From Solirubrobacterales bacterium (GTDB lineage: Bacteria > Actinomycetota > Thermoleophilia > Solirubrobacterales > 70-9), in contig DASUZK010000059.1 in NCBI GenBank assembly GCA_036376915.1, positions 43,249 through 107,248 on the forward strand: 64,000 bases of DNA. Direction: 5' to 3'. Positions 31,241 through 40,818 of the stretch are shown piece by piece. The position numbers and the translations under genes are program-made. Position 1 is the stretch's first letter. The number at the start of each line of letters is the position of its first letter. The notes beneath the pieces are model-generated. The model saw only the letters and a program-made list of their open reading frames with translations, ran no database searches and was not told where the DNA came from.

Positions 31241-32205
31241 GGGTCGCGGTGCTCAGCGGCGGGCGCTCCTCGGAGCACGACGTCTCGCTGCGCTCGGGGG
31301 AGGCGGTGGCGCGCGGCCTCGAAGAGGCCGGGCATGAGCCGCTGCGGGTGACGATCTCCCGCGAAGGGGTCTGGAGCTGTGACGGTTCGCCGGTCTCGCT
31401 GGCGCCCGGCGAAGGCCTGCTCGGCTGCGAGGTTGCCTTTCCCGCCTTGCACGGCCCCTTCGGCGAGGACGGCAGCGTCCAGGGCTTGCTCGAGTGGCTC
31501 GAGCTGCCATACGTCGGCTCCGACGTGCTCTCTTCGGCGATCTGCATGGACAAGCTGACGCTGAAGCGGCTCTTCGCCCAGGCGGGAGTCCCTCAGGTCG
31601 CCTTCGCCGGTGCCGGCGAACCGGGCTGGCGCGAGCGCTGCGAGTCGATGGGCTCGCCCCTCTGGGTCAAGCCCTCCCGCCTCGGCTCCAGCGTGGGGAT
31701 CAGCCGGGTCGAGGGAACGGGGGTGGAGCTGGACGACGCGGTCGCCCTCGCCCGCCGTCATGACCCCCGGGTGATCGTCGAGGCCCACGCTGCCGGCCGC
31801 GAGGTCGAGTGCTCGCTGCTCGGCAACGATCGGGTCGAGGCCTCGATTCCAGGAGAGGTCGTCGCCAACGGCGATTGGTACGACTACGAGACCAAGTACC
31901 GCGACGGCGGCATGGAGTTGGTCGTCCCGGCGCCGATCGGGGAGGAGCAGCTGGCGCACGTCCGCGACCTCGCGGCCCGCGTCTTCGAGCTGGCGGGTTG
32001 CTCGGGCCTCGCCCGCTGCGACTTCTTCGCCGAACCCGACGGCACCGTCCTCGTCAACGAGATCAACACCATGCCCGGCTTCACCCAGACCAGCGTCTAC
32101 GCCAAGCTCTGGGAGGCAAGTGGGGTCGCGTACCCGGAGCTCTGCGGCCGGTTGGTGGAGCTGGCGCTGGAGCGCCACGCCAAGGCGCGTTCCTACGAGT
32201 TCTGA
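31237..32205 (+). CDS. ddl: D-alanine--D-alanine ligase, second paralogue (long DdlA-like form)
   Basis: MRVAVLSGGRSSEHDVSLRSG, HGPFGEDGSVQGLLEWLELPYVG, VNEINTMPGFT. ATGA overlap with the pknB stop. Confidence 0.9.
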   Translation: MRVAVLSGGRSSEHDVSLRSGEAVARGLEEAGHEPLRVTISREGVWSCDGSPVSLAPGEGLLGCEVAFPALHGPFGEDGSVQGLLEWLELPYVGSDVLSSAICMDKLTLKRLFAQAGVPQVAFAGAGEPGWRERCESMGSPLWVKPSRLGSSVGISRVEGTGVELDDAVALARRHDPRVIVEAHAAGREVECSLLGNDRVEASIPGEVVANGDWYDYETKYRDGGMELVVPAPIGEEQLAHVRDLAARVFELAGCSGLARCDFFAEPDGTVLVNEINTMPGFTQTSVYAKLWEASGVAYPELCGRLVELALERHAKARSYEF

Positions 32206-33416
32206 GCTGGCAGCGTTCGCTGCCTTACCAGCGTCAAGGCGATCGGCAGGGAGCCCGTCCGCAGGATCGCGGCGAAGGCCTTGGCTTCCCCGAAGCTGGC
32301 GAAGCCTCCCGAGATTTGAGCGCCGGTTCGGCCGTCGATCCCGTCGGGGTTTTCGGCGAAGTTGATGATCGGGCGAGTCTTCACTTCGCGATCGAAAACG
32401 ACGGCGAAGTGGCCAGACAGCCTTTCAGCTTTCCTCGAGGTAACTCGGCCGGTCGCTCGCGCCGCGCCCCGGAAGGCGATCGCACGGGTGAGTCGCTCGA
32501 AGGCGATCCGTCCCTTGGCGGTGAAGGCAAAGGTGACATTTGGCTGACCGAGCTCGGTAGCTTCCTGTCTTGGATTGACGATGTCGACGCCTGTGAGGGC
32601 CGGCCTGTCCTTGAACGCATACCAGCCGGGCTCGCCTGCCGTGAGGACTTCACCAGAGCGGCTGGTCGGCTGCTCGGAAACGATCGTGATGCCGAGCGGC
32701 ACCTCGAGCACTATGCCGTTTCGCTGAGTGCCGCCGGTGCGAAGATCCGTCCTCCTGGCGACCGGTCCGGCGGTCAGCTCGTGGGCTGCCGAGCGGTCGA
32801 ACATATAGAAGCGCGAGCCCGAAGCGGTGCAGTTGGCACAGGGCGAGCGCGGCTCTTGTCGGGAGGCAAGCTCGACCGCGCCGTAGGGGGTCGGGAATGC
32901 GCCGGAGAGAATCAGCCGGGCGTTCTGCGGCGAGCTGTACGGTCGTCCGGCTGCTCGCCATTCGCGTTTCGCTCGCCTCAACGCGCTCGCCTTCGGTTTC
33001 CAGCCGGGGTTCCCGCCGATCGCCAGCTCGGGACCGATCAGGTTGGGTTCCCAGTCATAGAAGCCGAGCTGAGCCGTGGCACCGAGCCGATCCGCCACCC
33101 GTCGAGCGTCGCCGGGCTCCAGCCCCTCGGGCAAGACGACGCGAAGGCGGTTCCTGCCCCGCGCGTGGACCTCTCCGTCGGCAATTCCGAGGGCCCGCAG
33201 CCGCGCGCAGACGATCGCCACGGCCTGGTCGCGAGTGCGCGCCGTAACCCTCTCTTCGCCGGCCTGCAGTACGAATTCGAGCTCGAGCGAAGGCGCCTCT
33301 GGCTCGGCGGAGCAGGCCGGCGGAGACGCATCCGCACCTCCATCGGGGCCGCCCAGTGCGATCGCGCCGGCGACAATCGCCGTAAGAGCGGCAAGGGGCA
33401 GGGTGGGCCGAGTCAT
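32193..33416 (-). CDS. exported protein resembling the periplasmic (P1) domain of SecD, with no SecD transmembrane bundle
   Basis: Signal/anchor LPLAALTAIVAGAIALGG. RLRALGIADGEVHARGRNRLRVVLPEG...LGATAQLGFYDW and GQPNVTFAFTAKGRIAFERLT...FAVVFDREVKTRPII...GAQISGGFASFGEAKAFAAILRTGSLPIAL match my memory of SecD P1 motifs. Confidence 0.6.
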   Translation of the reverse strand: MTRPTLPLAALTAIVAGAIALGGPDGGADASPPACSAEPEAPSLELEFVLQAGEERVTARTRDQAVAIVCARLRALGIADGEVHARGRNRLRVVLPEGLEPGDARRVADRLGATAQLGFYDWEPNLIGPELAIGGNPGWKPKASALRRAKREWRAAGRPYSSPQNARLILSGAFPTPYGAVELASRQEPRSPCANCTASGSRFYMFDRSAAHELTAGPVARRTDLRTGGTQRNGIVLEVPLGITIVSEQPTSRSGEVLTAGEPGWYAFKDRPALTGVDIVNPRQEATELGQPNVTFAFTAKGRIAFERLTRAIAFRGAARATGRVTSRKAERLSGHFAVVFDREVKTRPIINFAENPDGIDGRTGAQISGGFASFGEAKAFAAILRTGSLPIALTLVRQRTLPAQNS

Positions 33417-33459: not shown

Positions 33460-34947
33460 TCAGCGCAGCAGCTCGATGTCGCTGATCTCGACCTGGTAGC
33501 GACCGGCCTGGTCGCGGGCTTCTGAGGCCCTGTTGAACCAGAGCAGGAAGTAGCGCGAAGGCGCGGGGACGGTGAGGTCGATCTCCTCGACCGAGGAGGC
33601 GTCGATCGCGATGCCCACCGGTTCGCCCCATTCGGACACTTCGCCCGGCGGCCCGCTGGCCGCGGCGAAGACCTGTGCGTCCCAGCCGGGGGTCGGGGTG
33701 CGGACGATCATCTTCCTGGGCCTGGCGAGCGAGCTCGCCGTCACGTAGACGCCGACCCCTTCGTTGGGGCCGGTCTTGGTCCCGGCGAAGTCGTCGGAGT
33801 CGTAGTGCTCGGTTTCCCACGCCGTCCCGGTCGGGTCGCCGTCGACGGCGAGCGCGATCTTGCTGCCGACCTCTTCTTCGTCCCCCTGCGGGTCGTAGTC
33901 GGTCGCCGAGCTGAGCGACACCGGCTGGCCTTTGCCCTCGTTGGCCCCGCCACCGCCGAGACCGCTGGAGATCAGCTGCACGGCGAGCAGCACGGCGCCG
34001 GCGACCAGCAGCAGCCCGGCGATCGCGGCCCAGCTCCAGCGCGCGCGCGTCGAGAGCTCGCGCTTCGGCGCCGGCACCGCCTCCAGGACGCTGGTCGCCT
34101 CACCCGTCGTCGACCCCGCCCGCGCCGCCTCGACCTCGAGCGCGGTCGAGAGGTCGTCGATCATCTCGCCGACGTCCTGGTAGCGCTGGCTCGGGTCCTT
34201 GGCGGTCGACCGCTCGACCACGAGCGCCACGGCGGCGGAGACCTCCGGCCTGCGCCGCTGCACGTCGGGCAGCTCCTCGTTGACGTGCTTCATCGCCACG
34301 CCGACCTGGCTCTCGGCCTGGAAGGGAACCTGCCCCACCAGCATCTCGTAGAGGACCACGCCGAGCGAGTAGACGTCGGAGCGGGGGTCGACCTTTCGTC
34401 CCATCGCCTGCTCGGGCGCGACGTAGTCGGTGGTGCCCAGCACCCGACCGGTCGCGGTCATCCCGTCCTGCTCGAGCTGTCGCGAGATGCCGAAGTCGGT
34501 CAGCTTCGCCCGTCCCTCGGCGTCGATCAGGACGTTCTGGGGCTTGATGTCGCGGTGGACCATGTTGCGCGCGTGCGCGACCGAGAGGCCGCGCGCCACC
34601 TCGATCGCGTAGGCGATCGCCTCCTGCGGCGCGAGGGCCCCGTCCCGGGCTATCCGCTGCTTCAGCGTCTCTCCCTCGACGTACTCGAAGACGATGTACG
34701 GGTGACCGCCGTCCTCGCCCGCGTCGATCACCGAGACCACGTTGGGATGGGAGAGCTTGGCGACGGAGCGCGCCTCCTGGCGGAAGCGCTCGAGCTGGTC
34801 AGCCTGCTCGGACATCTCGCGGTGCATCACCTTGACCGCGACCGGCCGGTCGAGGGTCTGATCGCGCGCCAGGTAGACGGTCGACATGCCGCCGCTGCCC
34901 AGCTTCGCCTCCAGCCGGTAGCGACCGGAGAGCACGGTCCCGATCAT
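33460..34947 (-). CDS. receptor-type Ser/Thr protein kinase (kinase + TM + about 170-aa extracytoplasmic domain)
   Basis: The internal ATG gives MIGTVLSGRYRLEAKLGSGGMSTVYLA. AVKVM, HRDIKPQN, DFGIS, APEQ, and TM WAAIAGLLLVAGAVLLAV. The C-terminal domain is unassigned. Confidence 0.88.
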   Translation of the reverse strand: MIGTVLSGRYRLEAKLGSGGMSTVYLARDQTLDRPVAVKVMHREMSEQADQLERFRQEARSVAKLSHPNVVSVIDAGEDGGHPYIVFEYVEGETLKQRIARDGALAPQEAIAYAIEVARGLSVAHARNMVHRDIKPQNVLIDAEGRAKLTDFGISRQLEQDGMTATGRVLGTTDYVAPEQAMGRKVDPRSDVYSLGVVLYEMLVGQVPFQAESQVGVAMKHVNEELPDVQRRRPEVSAAVALVVERSTAKDPSQRYQDVGEMIDDLSTALEVEAARAGSTTGEATSVLEAVPAPKRELSTRARWSWAAIAGLLLVAGAVLLAVQLISSGLGGGGANEGKGQPVSLSSATDYDPQGDEEEVGSKIALAVDGDPTGTAWETEHYDSDDFAGTKTGPNEGVGVYVTASSLARPRKMIVRTPTPGWDAQVFAAASGPPGEVSEWGEPVGIAIDASSVEEIDLTVPAPSRYFLLWFNRASEARDQAGRYQVEISDIELLR

Positions 34948-35048
34948 CGCGCTGCTTGTCGGTCGGGCTTCCACCAGGGTCACGCTATTGTCGCCGTCGT
35001 CACCGTTCGATGGTTCGCCGCCCTCCGCCTGCTGCCTGCAATCGGGCC

Positions 35049-38000
35049 TCAGTCGGCGGCGTCTTCGGAGGGCGCCTCGAGGAAAGCGGTTCGCAGCCGC
35101 TCGAGCGGGGCGGACCGGGCGTCCCCCGAGGCCAAGAGCCCATCGATGCGGGCCAGGTACTCGTACCGCTTTCCAGACGGCAGAAGCCGGCGGCAGCGCT
35201 CGATCGCCTGATCGGCCTCCTGCGTCTGCCCGGCCGCCGCCGCCGCGAGCGCGTGATGGAACTGGATGTCCGGATCGTCGCTGTAAGAACCCGAACACAG
35301 CCTCGCAATCGCCAGCGTCCGCGGGTCTTCCGCGGCCTCCAGGCACTCGCTGTCAGCCGCGAACGGCTCCACCCCTTCGACTTCTGCGATCGCTCGGGCT
35401 GAGCCGTACATCCTGGCGAGGTCCAGCAGCGCGACACGGGCCAGGAGGGCCGGGAGTTCGGGAGCCAGTAGTGCGGCCTCATGCAAGGCGCTTACAACGT
35501 GTGGGGCGAGGAGCTCGTCGGAGTTCTCTTCCAGGTAATCGAAGGACTCCTCTCCCCCGAGCGCAATCCACTCCATGAGTGGATTGCGCTCGGGCTGGGC
35601 ACTCTCCTCCTCAGCTCGTTTGTAGAGAATGGTCCAGCCCTCGTCGCCGGCGGCCGGACTGGCCAGCCAATCCGGCAGCTTCCGGCCGATGTCGCGCTCC
35701 CAGATCGAATCGAACGCAGCCTCGTCGGACGAGCGCAGGCGACCCAGGAAGGCGCGAGCGTCGGAAGAGAGCTCGTCCCCTCGCACCCCGCGCGCCCCGT
35801 CCAGGGCGAGCACCCCGTCCGCGACGGCCCCGGCCAGGTCACCCTCGTCGGAGTGCCATTGCGCCCGGCTCAGCAGGATGAACCCGACCGCGTCTTGCTG
35901 CCGATTTTCCTCCAGCGCCTCCTCGATCGCCTCCAGCGCCTCCTCGCTGCGGTTCAGGTTGCGGAGGATCGTGGAGAGGTTTTCGAGCGACATCGCGAGC
36001 TCCGACAGCCAGCGCTCCGGATCGTCTGCCGCCAAGCTACCGAAGCACTCCAGCGCCTCCTCGATCACCCTCAGCGCCTCCTCCATCCGTCGATTCCGCC
36101 CAAGCAGTGTCGCCAGGTTGTTGAGCGAGGCGGCCAGGGCCGGCAGGTAGTGCTCTCCGGCTTCGTCGAGCAGCCCCCGCTGCAGCTTCACCGCCTCCTC
36201 GATCGCCTCCAGCGCCTCCGTCTCGTCGCCGAGTATTCCTATGACGTTCGAGAGGTCGTTTAGGGCTATCGACAGCTCTGCCGCATGACGCTTCGGATCG
36301 AGCTCGAACAGCTCTCGACACCAATCGACGGCCTCCCGGACGAGGGGCAGCGCCTCCTCCCTCCATCTGCGCGGCGGAAGGACTCCCGCCAGGTTGCGCA
36401 GCGAGCCGGCGAGCTCCGGCAGCCAGCGCTCCGGATCGTCATCCGCGAACTCCCGATAGCCCTCTACCGCCTCCTCGATCGCCTCCAGCGCTTCCTCTCC
36501 TCTCCCCAGGTTGCCGAGGACGTTCGAGAGGGTGACGAGCCCACCGCTGAGCGAGGGCAGATAGCGATCGCGGTCATGTGCCACCAAGCTCCGATAGCCC
36601 TCTACCGCCGCCTCTACCGCCTCTACCGCCTCCTCGCTCCGCCACATGTCATTGAAGAGCCCGGCCAGGTTGTTGCGGGAGTTGGCGAGCGCATGCTGGT
36701 GTTCAAGTTCGTCCCCTATCGCCAGTTCGTCCCCCATCGCCAACACCTTCCGGATTTCCACCGCCTCCTCGCCCGCTTCCACCGCCTCCTCCCCGCGGTT
36801 GCTGTGGGCGAGGGCGATGGAGAAGCCAGCCAGCAGGCCAGCGAATTCACTCGGGGAAGCGGGCTTCTCGACCTCCCTCCGGAGCGTCTCGATGGCCACC
36901 CGGTAGAGGGCTGCCGCCAGGCCGGCCATCGCCGGCCCGGCTTCGCCGGCGCGCCGTGCGGCCTCCACGACTTTTGCTCTCGGCCGGGAGGCGAGGACGG
37001 CGAGCTCGACCGACGCCGCCAGCTCCGGCTCGGAGGTCGAGTGGATGGCCTGCCGGACGAGGCCCGGCAGGCGCTCGCCTAGTGCCCGGCCGACCTGCTC
37101 GGCCAGCGGATCGCTTCCCGTGCAGGCGCGGGCCAGGGTGTTCAGCGCCCGCGCCAGCTGGGCCTCGGACGCTGTGTCCAGTGCGGCCTCGATGAGCTCC
37201 GGGCGCTTCGTGCACTCTCGCCCGACGAGTGCCTCCCCGAGCATGTCCGGCTCGACCGGCGAGATCGCCGGCGCCCGATCCAGCTGCCCGCTGGCGTAAA
37301 GGTGGCTGAGCCAGCGCGCGACTTCCAGCTTTCGCTCCGGCACCGCCTCCTCCAGGTGGGGTATCGCACCCACGAGTGAGAGCGCTTCCTCCTCGGTGTC
37401 GGCCCCCAGCATCGTCGCCACAGCCGCGGCTGGCGCGTGCAGCGATCGATCCAGCTCAGTGCCCAGACTTCTGTCCCAGCGTTGCCAGTACTGTGCCTCG
37501 TGGCGATCGATCAGCTCGAGCATCACCTCGTCGCGGCCCAGCGTGTCTATGTCGATTGTCGGATCCTCGGCGCAGAGCAGCGCTGCCGCGAGGACGAAGA
37601 GGGGTCGGTCGAAGTGCGCTTGCTCCAGTGACACCCGCGGCACAGCCGCGGCCTCGGTGCCCAGCTGCGCGCGGAAGGCGACGACCCCCGCCTCGAACAG
37701 GCGCCGGCTGTCGAGCCGGTGCTCGGGGTCGCCGAGCCCGACCTCCTCGGCCTGCCTCAGGACCGCGGCGATCGCCTCTCGGTCGTCTCCGCTCGCAAAC
37801 AGCTCCTCCAGCTCTCGCCTCGTGCCGGCCTGGCGGCAGACGAGCACCAGCCGCACGGCCGCGCCACTCGCCCGATATGCGAGCTGCCCGATCAGAGAGC
37901 CGACCGCCTCGGGCCGGGTCTCGGCGTAATCGATCGCCACGAGCAAGCGGCCCGGCCACTCCACGAGTCGCTCGAGCTTTGCGCCCACGTCTGTCACCGC

Positions 38001-38969
38001 GTCCAGCGTGAGAAGGCCTGCCGTCCATCCCGCCCGCTCCGCCCGCCCGCACTCCTCGAGCGCCAGGCGGGTCTTGCCCGACCCACCACTGCCGGTGACC
38101 AAGAGGACATCCAGTCGCTTGGGTGACTCTCTCCAGTGCATGAACTGCGCTTGGAGCTCCTCGCGCTCGATCAGCTCGACGGCGCTGTAGCGTGGCTTGA
38201 GCAGCTCGCTCGGCGCGTACTCGGCCTTGGGATCCAGCTCGTAGGGGGGAGGCAGGATGGGCAGCTTCCTGGCCTCTCCCCGCCGCGTCGCGGCCGCCGC
38301 GCGTTCGCCCTCGACGGCGTCGTCCCAGGTTCCGTTCGTGTGTGCGGCTTCGCTGCGTTCGATTAGCCCCTGGAACTCGTCCACTACCACCGACATCGGA
38401 ACGGCGAACGCTCTGGGGTCGTGCTCCTCGCGCGTGCTCTCGATGACGCCGCAGACGAGGCCGGTGCGCATGTTCAGCAGGGGACTGCCGCTAAACCCGG
38501 GCACCACCTGGCCGTCCCTCAGCTTGAAGACGCCGAGGTCCCCGAAGACGCCCTCGAACTCGACCCTCGTCCCGTGAGACTCGACTACCCCGGGTCGGTG
38601 CATGCCTCGGCTGAAGGCCGACAGCCTGAGGCGATCGGCTTCGTCGCCGGCTGCTGGTACTTCAACCCCGAGCCGGACGCTCTGGTGCCCGTCGGGCGGC
38701 TCCCCCACTCGCAGCAGGGCGATGTCGGGAAAGGCGAAACCCTCCAACGGGGAATCCCCCTCGAGCTGGGGAGCGGAGGCAACGATCTCGGCCGGGGACG
38801 TCCAACCTCCCCTCGAAACCGTAATCGGCTTCCCGCCGTCGACCACGTGGGCGCAAGTGAGAATCTCCCCCTGGGCTACGAAGAACCCGGTCCCACTGAA
38901 CTCGCCGCCGCGGTCGATTCGAACCACGCACTCGTCCAGCAGGGATATGAGCGGGTTTCCCTCCGCCAC
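35049..38969 (-). CDS. trypsin-like serine protease + STAND-type P-loop NTPase + TPR-repeat protein (1306 aa)
   Basis: Triad H41 (LTCAHVV), D82 (FPDIALLRV), S161 (PGFSGSPLL). Walker A GSGGSGKT (293-300), Walker B RLLVAIDYAE (341-350). About 7-8 TPR-like repeats across aa 700-1035 (...EEALEAIEEAV.GYR...). Helical C-terminal region of about 270 aa. GTG start. Confidence 0.85.
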   Translation of the reverse strand: MAEGNPLISLLDECVVRIDRGGEFSGTGFFVAQGEILTCAHVVDGGKPITVSRGGWTSPAEIVASAPQLEGDSPLEGFAFPDIALLRVGEPPDGHQSVRLGVEVPAAGDEADRLRLSAFSRGMHRPGVVESHGTRVEFEGVFGDLGVFKLRDGQVVPGFSGSPLLNMRTGLVCGVIESTREEHDPRAFAVPMSVVVDEFQGLIERSEAAHTNGTWDDAVEGERAAAATRRGEARKLPILPPPYELDPKAEYAPSELLKPRYSAVELIEREELQAQFMHWRESPKRLDVLLVTGSGGSGKTRLALEECGRAERAGWTAGLLTLDAVTDVGAKLERLVEWPGRLLVAIDYAETRPEAVGSLIGQLAYRASGAAVRLVLVCRQAGTRRELEELFASGDDREAIAAVLRQAEEVGLGDPEHRLDSRRLFEAGVVAFRAQLGTEAAAVPRVSLEQAHFDRPLFVLAAALLCAEDPTIDIDTLGRDEVMLELIDRHEAQYWQRWDRSLGTELDRSLHAPAAAVATMLGADTEEEALSLVGAIPHLEEAVPERKLEVARWLSHLYASGQLDRAPAISPVEPDMLGEALVGRECTKRPELIEAALDTASEAQLARALNTLARACTGSDPLAEQVGRALGERLPGLVRQAIHSTSEPELAASVELAVLASRPRAKVVEAARRAGEAGPAMAGLAAALYRVAIETLRREVEKPASPSEFAGLLAGFSIALAHSNRGEEAVEAGEEAVEIRKVLAMGDELAIGDELEHQHALANSRNNLAGLFNDMWRSEEAVEAVEAAVEGYRSLVAHDRDRYLPSLSGGLVTLSNVLGNLGRGEEALEAIEEAVEGYREFADDDPERWLPELAGSLRNLAGVLPPRRWREEALPLVREAVDWCRELFELDPKRHAAELSIALNDLSNVIGILGDETEALEAIEEAVKLQRGLLDEAGEHYLPALAASLNNLATLLGRNRRMEEALRVIEEALECFGSLAADDPERWLSELAMSLENLSTILRNLNRSEEALEAIEEALEENRQQDAVGFILLSRAQWHSDEGDLAGAVADGVLALDGARGVRGDELSSDARAFLGRLRSSDEAAFDSIWERDIGRKLPDWLASPAAGDEGWTILYKRAEEESAQPERNPLMEWIALGGEESFDYLEENSDELLAPHVVSALHEAALLAPELPALLARVALLDLARMYGSARAIAEVEGVEPFAADSECLEAAEDPRTLAIARLCSGSYSDDPDIQFHHALAAAAAGQTQEADQAIERCRRLLPSGKRYEYLARIDGLLASGDARSAPLERLRTAFLEAPSEDAAD

Positions 38970-38978
38970 CGAGTTCGC

Positions 38979-39290
38979 CTAACGCTCGTTGGCCCACTCG
39001 AGCGTCACGACGAGCGAACCCCTTCCTTCCCCCTCGACCAAGAGGCCGCTCAGCTTCCCGTTCTTGACCGCAAGCTCCATGCCGAACTCGACGGTGGTCC
39101 TGTTGGGTTCGACCTTGGCCAAGGCTGCGTGGATCGCCTTGGCCACGCCCTGGAGCGTCTCGCCCACCCCGTCGAAATCGAGCTTGCCCATCGCACCGAC
39201 CTTCTTGGCTCCCTCCTCGTCCACCGCCGCTACCCGCGCCAGCGCGGTGGAGCCGTTGGGAAGGGACACCTCGACTATCTGCTCTTGCAC
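38979..39290 (-). CDS. small Trypco1-like (trypsin-co-occurring domain) protein, 103 aa
   Basis: GTG 39290 is preceded by AGGAGA with a 6-nt spacer. VQEQIVEVSLPNGSTALARV...TTVEFGMELAVKNGKLSGLLVEGEGRGSLVVTLEW matches the family pattern as I recall it. It ends 9 nt before the protease-NTPase gene. Confidence 0.65.
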   Translation of the reverse strand: MQEQIVEVSLPNGSTALARVAAVDEEGAKKVGAMGKLDFDGVGETLQGVAKAIHAALAKVEPNRTTVEFGMELAVKNGKLSGLLVEGEGRGSLVVTLEWANER

Positions 39291-39355
39291 CTTTGGTCTC
39301 CTGTGGTCCGCGGCATTCGATTGCAATGTAGTAACGACTCAGATGCGTTTGACCT

Positions 39356-40348
39356 TTAACCCTTCTCGCTCACCTGGCCGATCCGGTCTGCGTTCGGATA
39401 CCACTGACGCAACTGCTCGAGTGCTGCTGCATCGTCGCCGGCGGCGACGATGCAGCAGAAGCCGCAGCCCATGTTGAAGACCTCGTGCATCTCCCCGTCG
39501 GCAGTGCCCGAGCGCTCGGCAATCAGTTCGAAGATCGGTGGCACGGGGAGCGGCGCGTCGATCTCGTAGCCGACCTCGGCTGCGAGGCGGAGCAGGTTGC
39601 CGAGGCCGCCGGAGGTGATGTGGGCGAGGCCGCGCACCTCTACCTCCGAGCGCAGCAGCTCGAGGACCGGCTTGACGTAGATCTCGGTCGGCTCGAGCAG
39701 GACCTCGCCGAGGGGCCTGCCGAGGCGGCCTTCGGGATCCTCGTCCAGGGGAAGGCCGTCCAGAGCCGAGCGAGCGAGCGTGTAGCCGTTTGAGTGGATG
39801 CCGGAGGAGGGCAGGCCGATCACCGCGTCGCCCGGCCGTACGGCCGACCCGTCGACGATCTCGTCGAGGCCGACGGTGCCGAAGCAGGCGCCGGCGACGT
39901 CGAAGCCGCGCACCATGTCGCCGAGCTGTGCCAGCTCTCCGCCCGGGATCTCGATCCCGGCCAGCTCGGCCCCGCGGGCGAGGCCGACGCCGATCTGCTC
40001 GCAGACCTCGGGGTCGGCGCGGTCGATCGCGACGTAGTCGAGCATCGCCAGCGGCTCGGCGCCGACGCAGATCACGTCGTTGACGTTCATCGCCACGCAG
40101 TCGATGCCGACGGTGTCGAAGCGGCCGAGCTGCTCGGCAACCAGCAGCTTCGTCCCAACGCCGTCGGTGGAGAGCGCGATGCCCGTCCGCTCGTCGAGCT
40201 TGATCACGCTCGCGTAGTGGCCCGGCAGCGGCACCTGGCGGGAGGGGCGTCCCAGCTGGATCGCCCCGAGCGCCTTGACCAGCCCGGCGACGGCGGCGTC
40301 GGCTGCCCCCTGGTCGACCCCCGCCCTCGCGTACGCGTCGCCGCTCAT
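39356..40348 (-). CDS. purM: phosphoribosylformylglycinamidine cyclo-ligase (AIR synthase)
   Basis: YARAGVD, STDGVGTKLLVA, GIDCVAMNVNDVICVGAEPL, SSGIHSNGYTL, HITSGGL, FNMGCGF. Confidence 0.85.
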   Translation of the reverse strand: MSGDAYARAGVDQGAADAAVAGLVKALGAIQLGRPSRQVPLPGHYASVIKLDERTGIALSTDGVGTKLLVAEQLGRFDTVGIDCVAMNVNDVICVGAEPLAMLDYVAIDRADPEVCEQIGVGLARGAELAGIEIPGGELAQLGDMVRGFDVAGACFGTVGLDEIVDGSAVRPGDAVIGLPSSGIHSNGYTLARSALDGLPLDEDPEGRLGRPLGEVLLEPTEIYVKPVLELLRSEVEVRGLAHITSGGLGNLLRLAAEVGYEIDAPLPVPPIFELIAERSGTADGEMHEVFNMGCGFCCIVAAGDDAAALEQLRQWYPNADRIGQVSEKG

Positions 40349-40377: not shown

Positions 40378-40740
40378 TCAGCTGCCCTGCGGCGCGTAGC
40401 GGTTGTGAAGCATCAGGTCGTTGCCGTCGGGATCGGTGAAGAAGGCCATGTGGCAGACCCCGGTGTCCATGATCTCGCCGGCGAACTCCACCCCCTTGGC
40501 CTCGAGCTCCGTTCGCGCCGCAGCGACGTCGTCCACGTGCAGCGCCGGGTGCGCGTTCTTCTGCGCCGCGAACTCCATCCCGAATTTCTCCGGCTCCCAG
40601 ATGCCGAAGCACGTCTCCCCGGCCCAGAACTCGAAGCGTGAGTTCGCGTCCGGGCGCAACCCGAGCGTCTCGACGTAAAACCCCCGCGAGCGCTCGGCGT
40701 CCTGCGAGGGGATTCCTATGAAGTCTGCCTTGGTGATCAT
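40378..40740 (-). CDS. VOC/glyoxalase-family protein
   Basis: ATG 40740 is preceded by GGAGGA. GFYVETLGL...HPALHVDD...MAFFTDPDGNDLML. Confidence 0.8.
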   Translation of the reverse strand: MITKADFIGIPSQDAERSRGFYVETLGLRPDANSRFEFWAGETCFGIWEPEKFGMEFAAQKNAHPALHVDDVAAARTELEAKGVEFAGEIMDTGVCHMAFFTDPDGNDLMLHNRYAPQGS

Positions 40741-40818
40741 CGGTCCTCCAGGTGTCGTGGGAAACGCCAAGCTAACTCCAAATCAACTCCAAGTTCGTCC
40801 AAATTTTGGAATTAGCTG

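Follow-up and report, generated by a model that had tools for sequence, protein, structure and literature searches.

Trypco1 and Trypco2 were defined as two families that accompany trypsin-like peptidases, one excluding the other, in NTP-dependent conflict systems, which were tied to multicellular lifestyles and not strictly to phages, and the trypsin domains found in the effector position of their vWA-MoxR systems are nearly all inactive (Kaur et al. 2020, eLife, PMC7159879). Evans et al. (bioRxiv 10.1101/2025.11.14.688446) group Trypco1 and Trypco2 as 'Pepco' and characterised SsPepco, which is encoded just upstream of the trypsin-bearing SsAvs4 of Streptomyces subrutilus and is required for portal-triggered toxicity, as is the catalytic serine of the protease. 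In that work, SsPepco forms heat- and sodium dodecyl sulphate (SDS)-stable 9-10-mers and is cut by the protease after Ile97, which removes a ~2-kDa (20-aa) tail, and SsPepco truncated exactly at the cleavage site is toxic alone; the lumen of the Pepco barrel is described as charged and its exterior as hydrophobic, with amphipathic helices at the base. Here we analyse a related pair in a 64,000-nt stretch of a Solirubrobacterales bacterium genome (GenBank assembly GCA_036376915.1, contig DASUZK010000059.1, positions 43,249 to 107,248), hereafter called the window. It is a cassette formed by a Trypco1 gene and a gene for a giant protein that combines a trypsin-like protease, an NTPase of the STAND type (signal transduction ATPases that have numerous domains) and tetratricopeptide repeats (TPRs). 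We favour, at a probability of roughly 55%, the reading that this cassette is a two-gene sensor-and-executioner module in the style of nucleotide-binding leucine-rich repeat (NLR) and Avs proteins, in which Trypco1 is cleaved into a membrane-damaging toxin. An earlier interpretation made from the DNA letters alone (the sequence-only reading) had held that pairs of Trypco and trypsin-like proteins were without experimental characterisation; this is outdated by the tests of Evans et al. on Trypco2 and trypsin-Avs4, which revealed protease-licensed, pore-type toxicity.

The cassette spans ~4.38 kb (34975..39355), from the stop codon of purM (AIR synthase, 39356..40348; Pfam AIRS and AIRS_C) to the start codon of a gene for a 504-aa Ser/Thr protein kinase (33460..34974; Pfam Pkinase, 5.6e-58). 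Positions are those of the window, and both cassette genes, the domains they encode and the two flanking genes lie on its minus strand. The small gene (38979..39290) encodes a 103-aa protein assigned by Pfam and NCBIfam to the Trypco1/CU044_2847 family (Pepco class), and the large gene (35049..38969; GenBank HEX6753190.1) starts with GTG and encodes 1306 aa. In its longest form the small open reading frame runs from 38979 to 39326 (115 aa, from a TTG); the shorter, 103-aa form begins with the GTG at 39290. We favour the 103-aa form because an AGGAGA ribosome-binding site, read from the sequence at 39297..39302, sits 6-7 nt 5' of this GTG, because 20 homologues of the small protein start at the corresponding position and because the GenBank record (HEX6753191.1) lists a 103-aa 'CU044_2847 family protein'. 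The stop codon of the small gene and the large gene's GTG are 9 nt apart. The sequence-only reading had likewise described a 103-aa frame with a good ribosome-binding site that ends 9 nt before a 1306-aa frame, and the sequence confirms this. The intergenic gaps from purM through the cassette to the kinase gene measure 65, 9 and 74 nt, and a scan of the cassette for promoter and terminator consensus sequences found none. In relatives with an empty site, of which L018 ('...CCACTGAATGGAAGC...') is an example, the stop codon of purM directly adjoins the kinase ATG or overlaps with it, and the kinase start in the window, GTG GAA GCC CGA at 34974, is homologous to the kinase start of these empty sites. 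The cassette is therefore a discrete 4.38-kb insertion, which, as judged from these alleles, interrupts an otherwise tight coupling of purM and the kinase gene. At its left end the junction is short and, among carriers, only weakly conserved.

The small protein matches Pfam Trypco1 (PF19493) with an E-value of 2.3e-13 and 51 bits (cut-off 24.6) over model positions 3-97 of 98, and NCBIfam CU044_2847_fam (NF041216) with 1.4e-13 and 51.3 bits (cut-off 23). By these full-length matches above the curated cut-offs it is a member of the Trypco1/CU044_2847 family, as had been proposed from its sequence pattern. Its relatives comprise 20 close homologues and, in a full-library search, 1238 representative clusters. 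The small frame is conserved beside such proteases: in 9 of 9 loci examined (the window, L001-L003 and L083-L087), which represent several genomic contexts and giants at 36-57% identity, the giant homologue is immediately preceded by a Trypco1 gene in the same orientation. Streptomyces plasmids (L088, L089) carry distant giant homologues, annotated as trypsin-like peptidase or TPR protein and 25-31% identical over the NTPase and helical region, which are preceded in the same arrangement by an annotated trypco2 gene; these pairs are flanked by insertion sequence (IS) and Tn3 transposases. The swap of trypco2 for Trypco1 beside homologous giants fits the rule that the two are mutually exclusive (PMC7159879). 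Homology between Trypco1 and Trypco2 is not claimed, as none of three profile-profile comparisons was significant. Searches of PADLOC and of a phage database with the small protein returned no match.

In an AlphaFold2 (AF2) monomer model, which is weak but clear in topology, the small protein has a short beta-hairpin at the N terminus, followed by a helix of 22 residues and then a long beta-hairpin. Across an alignment of 125 Trypco1 sequences, the helix is strongly amphipathic, and in the long strands hydrophobic residues alternate with positions that are charged in 69-94% of the sequences (E68, E72, K76, K94, E98). The hydrophobic moment (muH) of helix 39-60 is 1.72 at 100 degrees and 0.07 at 180 degrees, and at 180 degrees it reaches 2.68 for strand 64-76 and 2.01 for strand 88-100. 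A conserved hydrophobic stretch, G-K-L-T-A-L-L-V-K-G, separates the strands. As read from the alignment, this arrangement of strands and helix is the design described for the Pepco barrel.

The sequence-only reading had divided the large protein into four parts, and Pfam, motif and AF2 evidence agree on this anatomy. An AF2 model of aa 1-700, built from a 50-sequence alignment (predicted local distance difference test (pLDDT) score 90.1, predicted template modelling score (pTM) 0.84), contains, from N to C terminus, a beta-rich domain, an alternating strand-helix NTPase core and an all-helical region. The first of these corresponds to a Trypsin_2 domain (aa 26-175, 38445..38894), delimited by a full-length Pfam match, AF2 and Foldseek; the match to Trypsin_2 (clan PA) has an E-value of 4.6e-15 and 57 bits (cut-off 27.6). 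Foldseek against the PDB with aa 1-700 placed Mycobacterium tuberculosis MarP/Rv3671c on top (TM 0.65-0.73), with RsgI9 S1C, Deg2, HtrA, chymase and trypsin among the further matches (E 1e-8 to 1e-6, TM 0.6-0.73 overall), and trypsin-fold matches filled the top 50, in line with the fold that had been proposed. Translation places the triad codons H41 (38847-38849), D82 (38724-38726) and S160 (38490-38492) within the motifs CAH41VV, FPD82IA and GFS160GS, in His-Asp-Ser order; the catalytic serine had been numbered S161, and codon translation shows that it is S160, residue 161 being a glycine. In alignments of 35 and 50 homologues, H41, D82 and G158-S160-G161 are invariant or nearly so. On the strength of sequence and model, we assign the N terminus of the large protein to the trypsin-fold proteases with catalytic motifs intact. 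If the cassette were instead a decaying or inert remnant, its protease would be non-catalytic and would serve as a binding module only. The inactivity of nearly all effector-position trypsin domains in vWA-MoxR systems (Kaur et al., PMC7159879) would suit such a view, but both frames are uninterrupted, H41, D82, S160, K299 and D347 are conserved across 35-50 homologues and the protease-NTPase model is of high confidence, which together make a remnant very improbable.

Residues 264-415 (37725..38180) form a P-loop nucleotide-binding domain, delimited by a match to nSTAND_NTPase5, by motifs and by AF2. Walker A, GSGGSGKT (K299; 38070-38093), and Walker B, LLVAIDYAE (D347, E350; 37920-37946), were both verified by translation; in the AF2 model the former follows strand 286-292 and the latter lies at the end of strand 342-346. 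R379 is a conserved arginine after the strand that follows Walker B, and the domain thus displays the P-loop NTPase pattern of Walker A, Walker B and an arginine after the next strand. In the same alignments of 35 and 50 homologues, G296-G298-K299, D347-Y-A-E350 and R379 are invariant or nearly so. For 12 of the 13 members of an NTPase sub-alignment the best family is nSTAND_NTPase5 (best E 2.5e-8), followed by AAA_16 and nSTAND3. Going by motifs and profiles, the NTPase is STAND-type and nSTAND5-related, and is neither a certified nSTAND5 member nor, by the PADLOC models, a member of a named Avs family. The following region (aa 416-703, 36861..37724), defined by AF2 and by conservation, consists of helices only (pLDDT about 90) and leads into the TPRs. 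It contains the invariant residues H452, H490-E491, W495, W553, Y558 and P574-D575, gave no Pfam or PDB match and is presumed to be the helical and winged-helix arm of a STAND protein.

Seven TPR units of the TPR_10/TPR_12 type occupy aa 704-1031 (35877..36860), as defined by Pfam and by spacing. Pfam TPR_10, TPR_12, TPR_2 and TPR_8 match the large protein with E-values of 1e-11 to 1e-13, and PDB profile matches lead to the TPRs of kinesin light chain (1e-16). The array keeps a strict 46-aa period over exactly seven units; the TPRs of the sequence-only reading thus stand, with their count (7-8) and range (aa 700-1035) corrected. Because the DNA repeats, with a period of 138 nt, are only 60-76% identical from unit to unit, the array is not recently expanded or hypervariable. 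The C-terminal 275 aa (35052..35876) form a helical, family-specific domain that is conserved across 12 homologues, of which the window clade is without one internal ~65-aa unit. Profile searches of this domain gave no Pfam match and no PDB match, in keeping with the earlier description of ~270 aa without a recognised motif, and the domain probably belongs to the sensor.

Within the DNA that encodes the C-terminal domain lies an inverted repeat whose 18-bp arms match perfectly around a 3-nt loop (CCCGAGCGCAATCCACTC / GAGTGGATTGCGCTCGGG; window 35556-35594, ~aa 1126-1138) and which is absent at the equivalent place of related loci. Perfect hairpins of at least 13 bp occur four times in the 64-kb window and not at all in five shuffles. 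Owing to this 18-bp palindrome, an antisense open reading frame at 35481-36263 (plus strand) encodes a peptide, ERNPLHEWIALG, that is nearly the same as the sense peptide ERNPLMEWIALG; we regard the likeness as a curiosity that is no evidence of an antisense gene.

The pair is a genuine, well-formed two-gene conflict module, with the effector-NTPase-repeat layout that the sequence-only reading had recognised as that of an Avs/NLR-like switch. In the favoured reading, the TPR array and the C-terminal helical domain would probably hold the large protein autoinhibited until a trigger binds, for which a phage protein is the most likely candidate. Trigger binding would lead to nucleotide-dependent oligomerisation of the STAND NTPase, which would gather the N-terminal protease domains and thereby activate them. 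Once active, the protease would cut the Trypco1 protein, whose gene lies directly upstream, at a site discussed below, and the oligomer of the processed protein would injure the membrane and cause cell death or arrest (abortive infection). As Trypco1 and Trypco2 substitute for each other beside homologous proteases and share an amphipathic design, the simplest assumption is that their role is the same; the link by which the mechanism may be carried over from Trypco2 to Trypco1 is contextual. The small protein had earlier been regarded as a possible substrate, inhibitor or adaptor, and in the light of the work of Evans et al. a substrate is the best supported of the three.

Several observations weigh against this reading. 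The experimentally characterised Pepco is a Trypco2 protein (SsPepco matches Pfam Trypco2 with an E-value of 5e-18 and is named Trypco2 in the supplementary legends of Evans et al. as well), and the window protein is a Trypco1; hhalign comparison of Trypco1 profiles of 21 and 126 sequences with SsPepco or with a 25-sequence Trypco2 profile gave E-values of 0.06-0.24 at probabilities below 1%. The tail of the window protein after the invariant tryptophan consists of ANER (4 aa). Among Trypco1 sequences this tail has a median length of 7 aa (range 0-48) and is of 2 aa or fewer in 20 of 123, with isoleucine contributing 1% of tail residues. Judged by these tails, Trypco1 is without a cleavable segment of the SsPepco type, and a mechanism based on removal of a 2-kDa tail after an isoleucine cannot simply be transferred to it. 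AF2 modelled the small-protein monomer with low confidence (pLDDT 61.5), and Foldseek with this model found no structural neighbours. In the large protein, the nSTAND_NTPase5 (PF25199) match on aa 270-385 (E 1.6e-6, 28.5-30.1 bits) is below the 34-bit gathering cut-off, as are the matches of 24.9-32.1 bits in four of six homologues, and a PDB profile search with the NTPase sub-alignment returned generic P-loop matches only and no solved STAND relative. PADLOC-DB v2, which covers Avs1-5 and other defence systems, gave no system-level match for either protein; the matches of the large protein were a weak one to RT-Protease_XI (1e-5) on the protease domain and one to a generic TPR model. Membership of a named Avs family among those covered by these models is not upheld, there being no PADLOC Avs match and an NTPase under the nSTAND5 cut-off. 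A search for mobility genes, recombinases or att-like direct repeats in or flanking the cassette found none. Lastly, the cassette lies inside a housekeeping operon and in the same slot in 7 genomes, for which vertical inheritance is also an explanation.

Some of these points would suit a different role for Trypco1, in which it would regulate the protease as an adaptor, chaperone, inhibitor or decoy substrate, and the activated protease would itself kill by cutting host or phage proteins. The want of detectable homology to the tested Trypco2, of a cleavable C-terminal tail and of a confident monomer model with structural neighbours would then be expected, and a caspase-like protease that has no partner effector and still defends has been described (Evans et al., bioRxiv 10.1101/2025.11.14.688446). 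However, Trypco1 and Trypco2 are found in an identical position beside homologous giants, an amphipathic helix with charged/hydrophobic strands suits a membrane-active oligomer better than an inhibitor, and deletion of the small gene abolished SsAvs4 toxicity (bioRxiv 10.1101/2025.11.14.688446), and we therefore consider a purely regulatory Trypco1 unlikely. Tentative, and less likely than not, is the idea that Trypco1 represents a separate class of protease-licensed effector: with no detectable sequence homology to Trypco2, an additional beta-hairpin at the N terminus and next to no C-terminal tail, it would have to be activated elsewhere in the protein than Trypco2/Pepco, or in another way. 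Any cleavage site in Trypco1 would have to lie elsewhere, because the family is without both the long C-terminal tail and the conserved isoleucine. The protease may cut in the flexible linker with the conserved 'G-G-E-x-D-V' between the N-terminal hairpin and the helix, or it may cut within the last strand, after the conserved V/I95. Such a separate class may be driven by the nSTAND5-like sensor clade and carried at a recombination-prone slot in a housekeeping operon of the barely studied Solirubrobacterales.

We asked how widely the cassette is distributed. The first three homologues (L001-L003) carry it in the same slot, in the order purM, Trypco1, giant and kinase, which had prompted the view of a conserved core-genome feature. 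This view is ruled out by 80 surveyed genomes, each representing a species and carrying a purM of 76-91% identity, among which the cassette occupies the purM|kinase slot once (L083); the kinase of these relatives is 58-92% identical and directly follows purM. In 51 of the 75 genomes with both flanks the purM-kinase gap is at most 300 nt, and the remainder hold other inserts of 0.5-6.7 kb. The accessory insertion downstream of purM that had been proposed from the sequence is upheld by this rarity and by the contact between the purM stop and the kinase start in relatives. In a tree of purM and kinase, the seven carriers are scattered, most of them with empty-site sisters. Identity between carriers is 54-66% for the small protein, 42-59% for the protease, 50-64% for the NTPase, 37-43% for the TPR array and 32-49% for the C-terminal domain, compared with 77-89% for the flanks (purM and kinase). 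The cassette may have been gained anciently and then lost repeatedly, or may have been exchanged repeatedly by recombination in the conserved flanks, and its status as an accessory insertion is supported under either history.

Genes in other inserts of the slot (L016, L036 and L081) were called by open reading frame listing with Pfam and PADLOC. In L016 (11029-12477) we found a 482-aa DUF234/ATPase_2/AAA_16 protein with a match (1.6e-25) to PDC-S27, a candidate defence family of PADLOC, in L036 (11029-13617) an 862-aa open reading frame with no Pfam or PADLOC match, and in L081 a 6.7-kb set of ordinary-looking genes. As side observations, the inserts of L007 and L010 are similar in size to that of L016, and the 862-aa protein of L036 contains, by eye only, a GYSLGS motif resembling the nucleophile elbow of alpha/beta-hydrolases. 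Homologues of the pair also occur at other kinds of loci. In L086 (1-18336; homologue P0025), Trypco1 and a 2111-aa giant with many more TPRs have a TrwC relaxase gene on one side and, on the other, a series of Eco57I, XhoI, HNH, UvrD-helicase and DEAD/Helicase_C/MZB genes, a setting reminiscent of a defence island carried by a mobile element, and the pair in L087 sits among unrelated genes.

This distribution bears on whether the module could be a non-antiviral, lineage-inherited stress or developmental switch for death or signalling, which would respond to an endogenous trigger and belong to a purM-kinase operon by a cell-wall/PASTA-kinase cluster. The constant slot and strand in 7 genomes, the short gaps with no promoter or terminator consensus found, and the cassette without a mobility gene would all agree with such a switch. 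So would the identity of each cassette to that of the window, which roughly follows flank identity (L002 is closest in both), and the tie of these conflict systems to multicellular lifestyles (Kaur et al., PMC7159879). On the other hand, the cassette is missing from 79 of the 80 related species representatives, sister taxa of carriers among them; homologues reside at unrelated loci, in a restriction/helicase island by a relaxase gene and between plasmid transposases; and the same slot elsewhere holds a different candidate defence gene. We thus judge an endogenous switch to be rather improbable, less so than a remnant and more so than a regulatory Trypco1.

The surroundings of the cassette show further variation. 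The C-terminal tail of purM in the window (39356-39400, ...RIGQVSEKG*) differs in sequence from the tail in relatives (...RIG.A..GPREIRRP*), other cassette carriers included, and is also shorter; the frame stops ~5 codons early, beside the insertion. The 3' end of purM includes an inverted repeat of two perfectly matching 17-bp arms around a 1-nt loop (window 39424-39458, encoding ...CCIVAAGDDAA...), which is located ~70 nt upstream of the left junction of the cassette; purM of relatives showed no such repeat. Long perfect palindromes with stems of 19-26 bp and shared ends (GCCGACGGGCC ... GGCCCGTCGGC) recur in related Solirubrobacterales loci (L023 14479-14523, L041 579-631 and 15539-15587, L055 1841-1893, L082 15775-15823, L084 15124-15172) and may represent an element like the repetitive extragenic palindromes (REP) or a terminator. 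The slot between BacA and purM (window 40378-40770) contains a glyoxalase/VOC gene by Pfam in the window and a Fic-domain gene in L001, L003 and L084, and is empty in L002 and L085. The slot between the kinase gene and Ddl (window 32193-33416) encodes a 407-aa protein resembling the SecD P1 head, and relatives have different genes or none there.

Much of the module is already known: both families are in Pfam and NCBIfam, both proteins are annotated in GenBank, the architecture was catalogued in 2020 and a sister family was characterised in 2025. With architecture, families and general mechanism present in the literature and in annotation databases, the locus does not reveal a new principle. 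If the favoured model holds, the 'sensor - protease - pro-toxin' logic of bacterial immunity, which parallels inflammasome, caspase and gasdermin, would reach the Trypco1 branch with its ~1,200 representative clusters, and also an uncharacterised STAND clade in an uncultured order of soil actinobacteria. The locus poses the questions of where and how a tail-less Trypco1 is licensed, given that the tail gates Trypco2, and of what the nSTAND5-like TPR sensor recognises. It is, in addition, a clean natural case of a defence-type cassette between two translationally coupled core genes, where occupied and empty alleles are easily compared.

We finally compared the locus to known systems. As in the pairs of Kaur et al. 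(PMC7159879), a Trypco gene stands beside a trypsin gene. Those pairs are mainly found in vWA-MoxR ternary systems, whereas the pair in the window neighbours purM and a kinase gene; no vWA or MoxR gene is present among the window neighbours (purM, kinase, glyoxalase and SecD-like) or in the Pfam annotations of L001-L003 and L084-L087. The window protease also differs in being fused to a STAND NTPase with TPRs and in having intact catalytic residues. The likeness to SsPepco-SsAvs4 is closer: each pairs a giant, made up of a trypsin-like protease at the N terminus, a STAND NTPase and a sensor of helical repeats, with a gene for ~100-117 aa immediately upstream, each comes from an actinobacterium, and both small proteins have an amphipathic helix and amphipathic beta-strands. 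Compared with SsPepco, the window protein has an extra N-terminal beta-hairpin and is without the 20 aa that the protease removes by its cut after Ile97. The trigger of SsAvs4 is the phage portal, and the window NTPase is nSTAND5-like, not Avs4, with weak BLAST similarity to SsAvs4 that is confined to the protease (E 0.002). The antiviral STAND families Avs1-5 were reportedly described by Gao and co-workers in 2022. To these, families Avs7-21 have been added (Lee et al., bioRxiv 10.64898/2026.01.04.697583). The window protein resembles Avs proteins in its N-terminal effector, STAND NTPase and C-terminal TPR-like sensor, and several Avs proteins have protease effectors that act on the product of a neighbouring gene; it differs in matching no PADLOC Avs model and in an NTPase without a sequence match to a solved STAND protein. 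In bacterial gasdermin-protease systems, reportedly described by Johnson and co-workers in 2022, a sensor-linked protease is said to cleave a neighbouring small pro-toxin, upon which the membrane is permeabilised. The module in the window would follow the same protease/pro-toxin logic, with a 103-aa Trypco1 protein in place of a gasdermin fold or family match.

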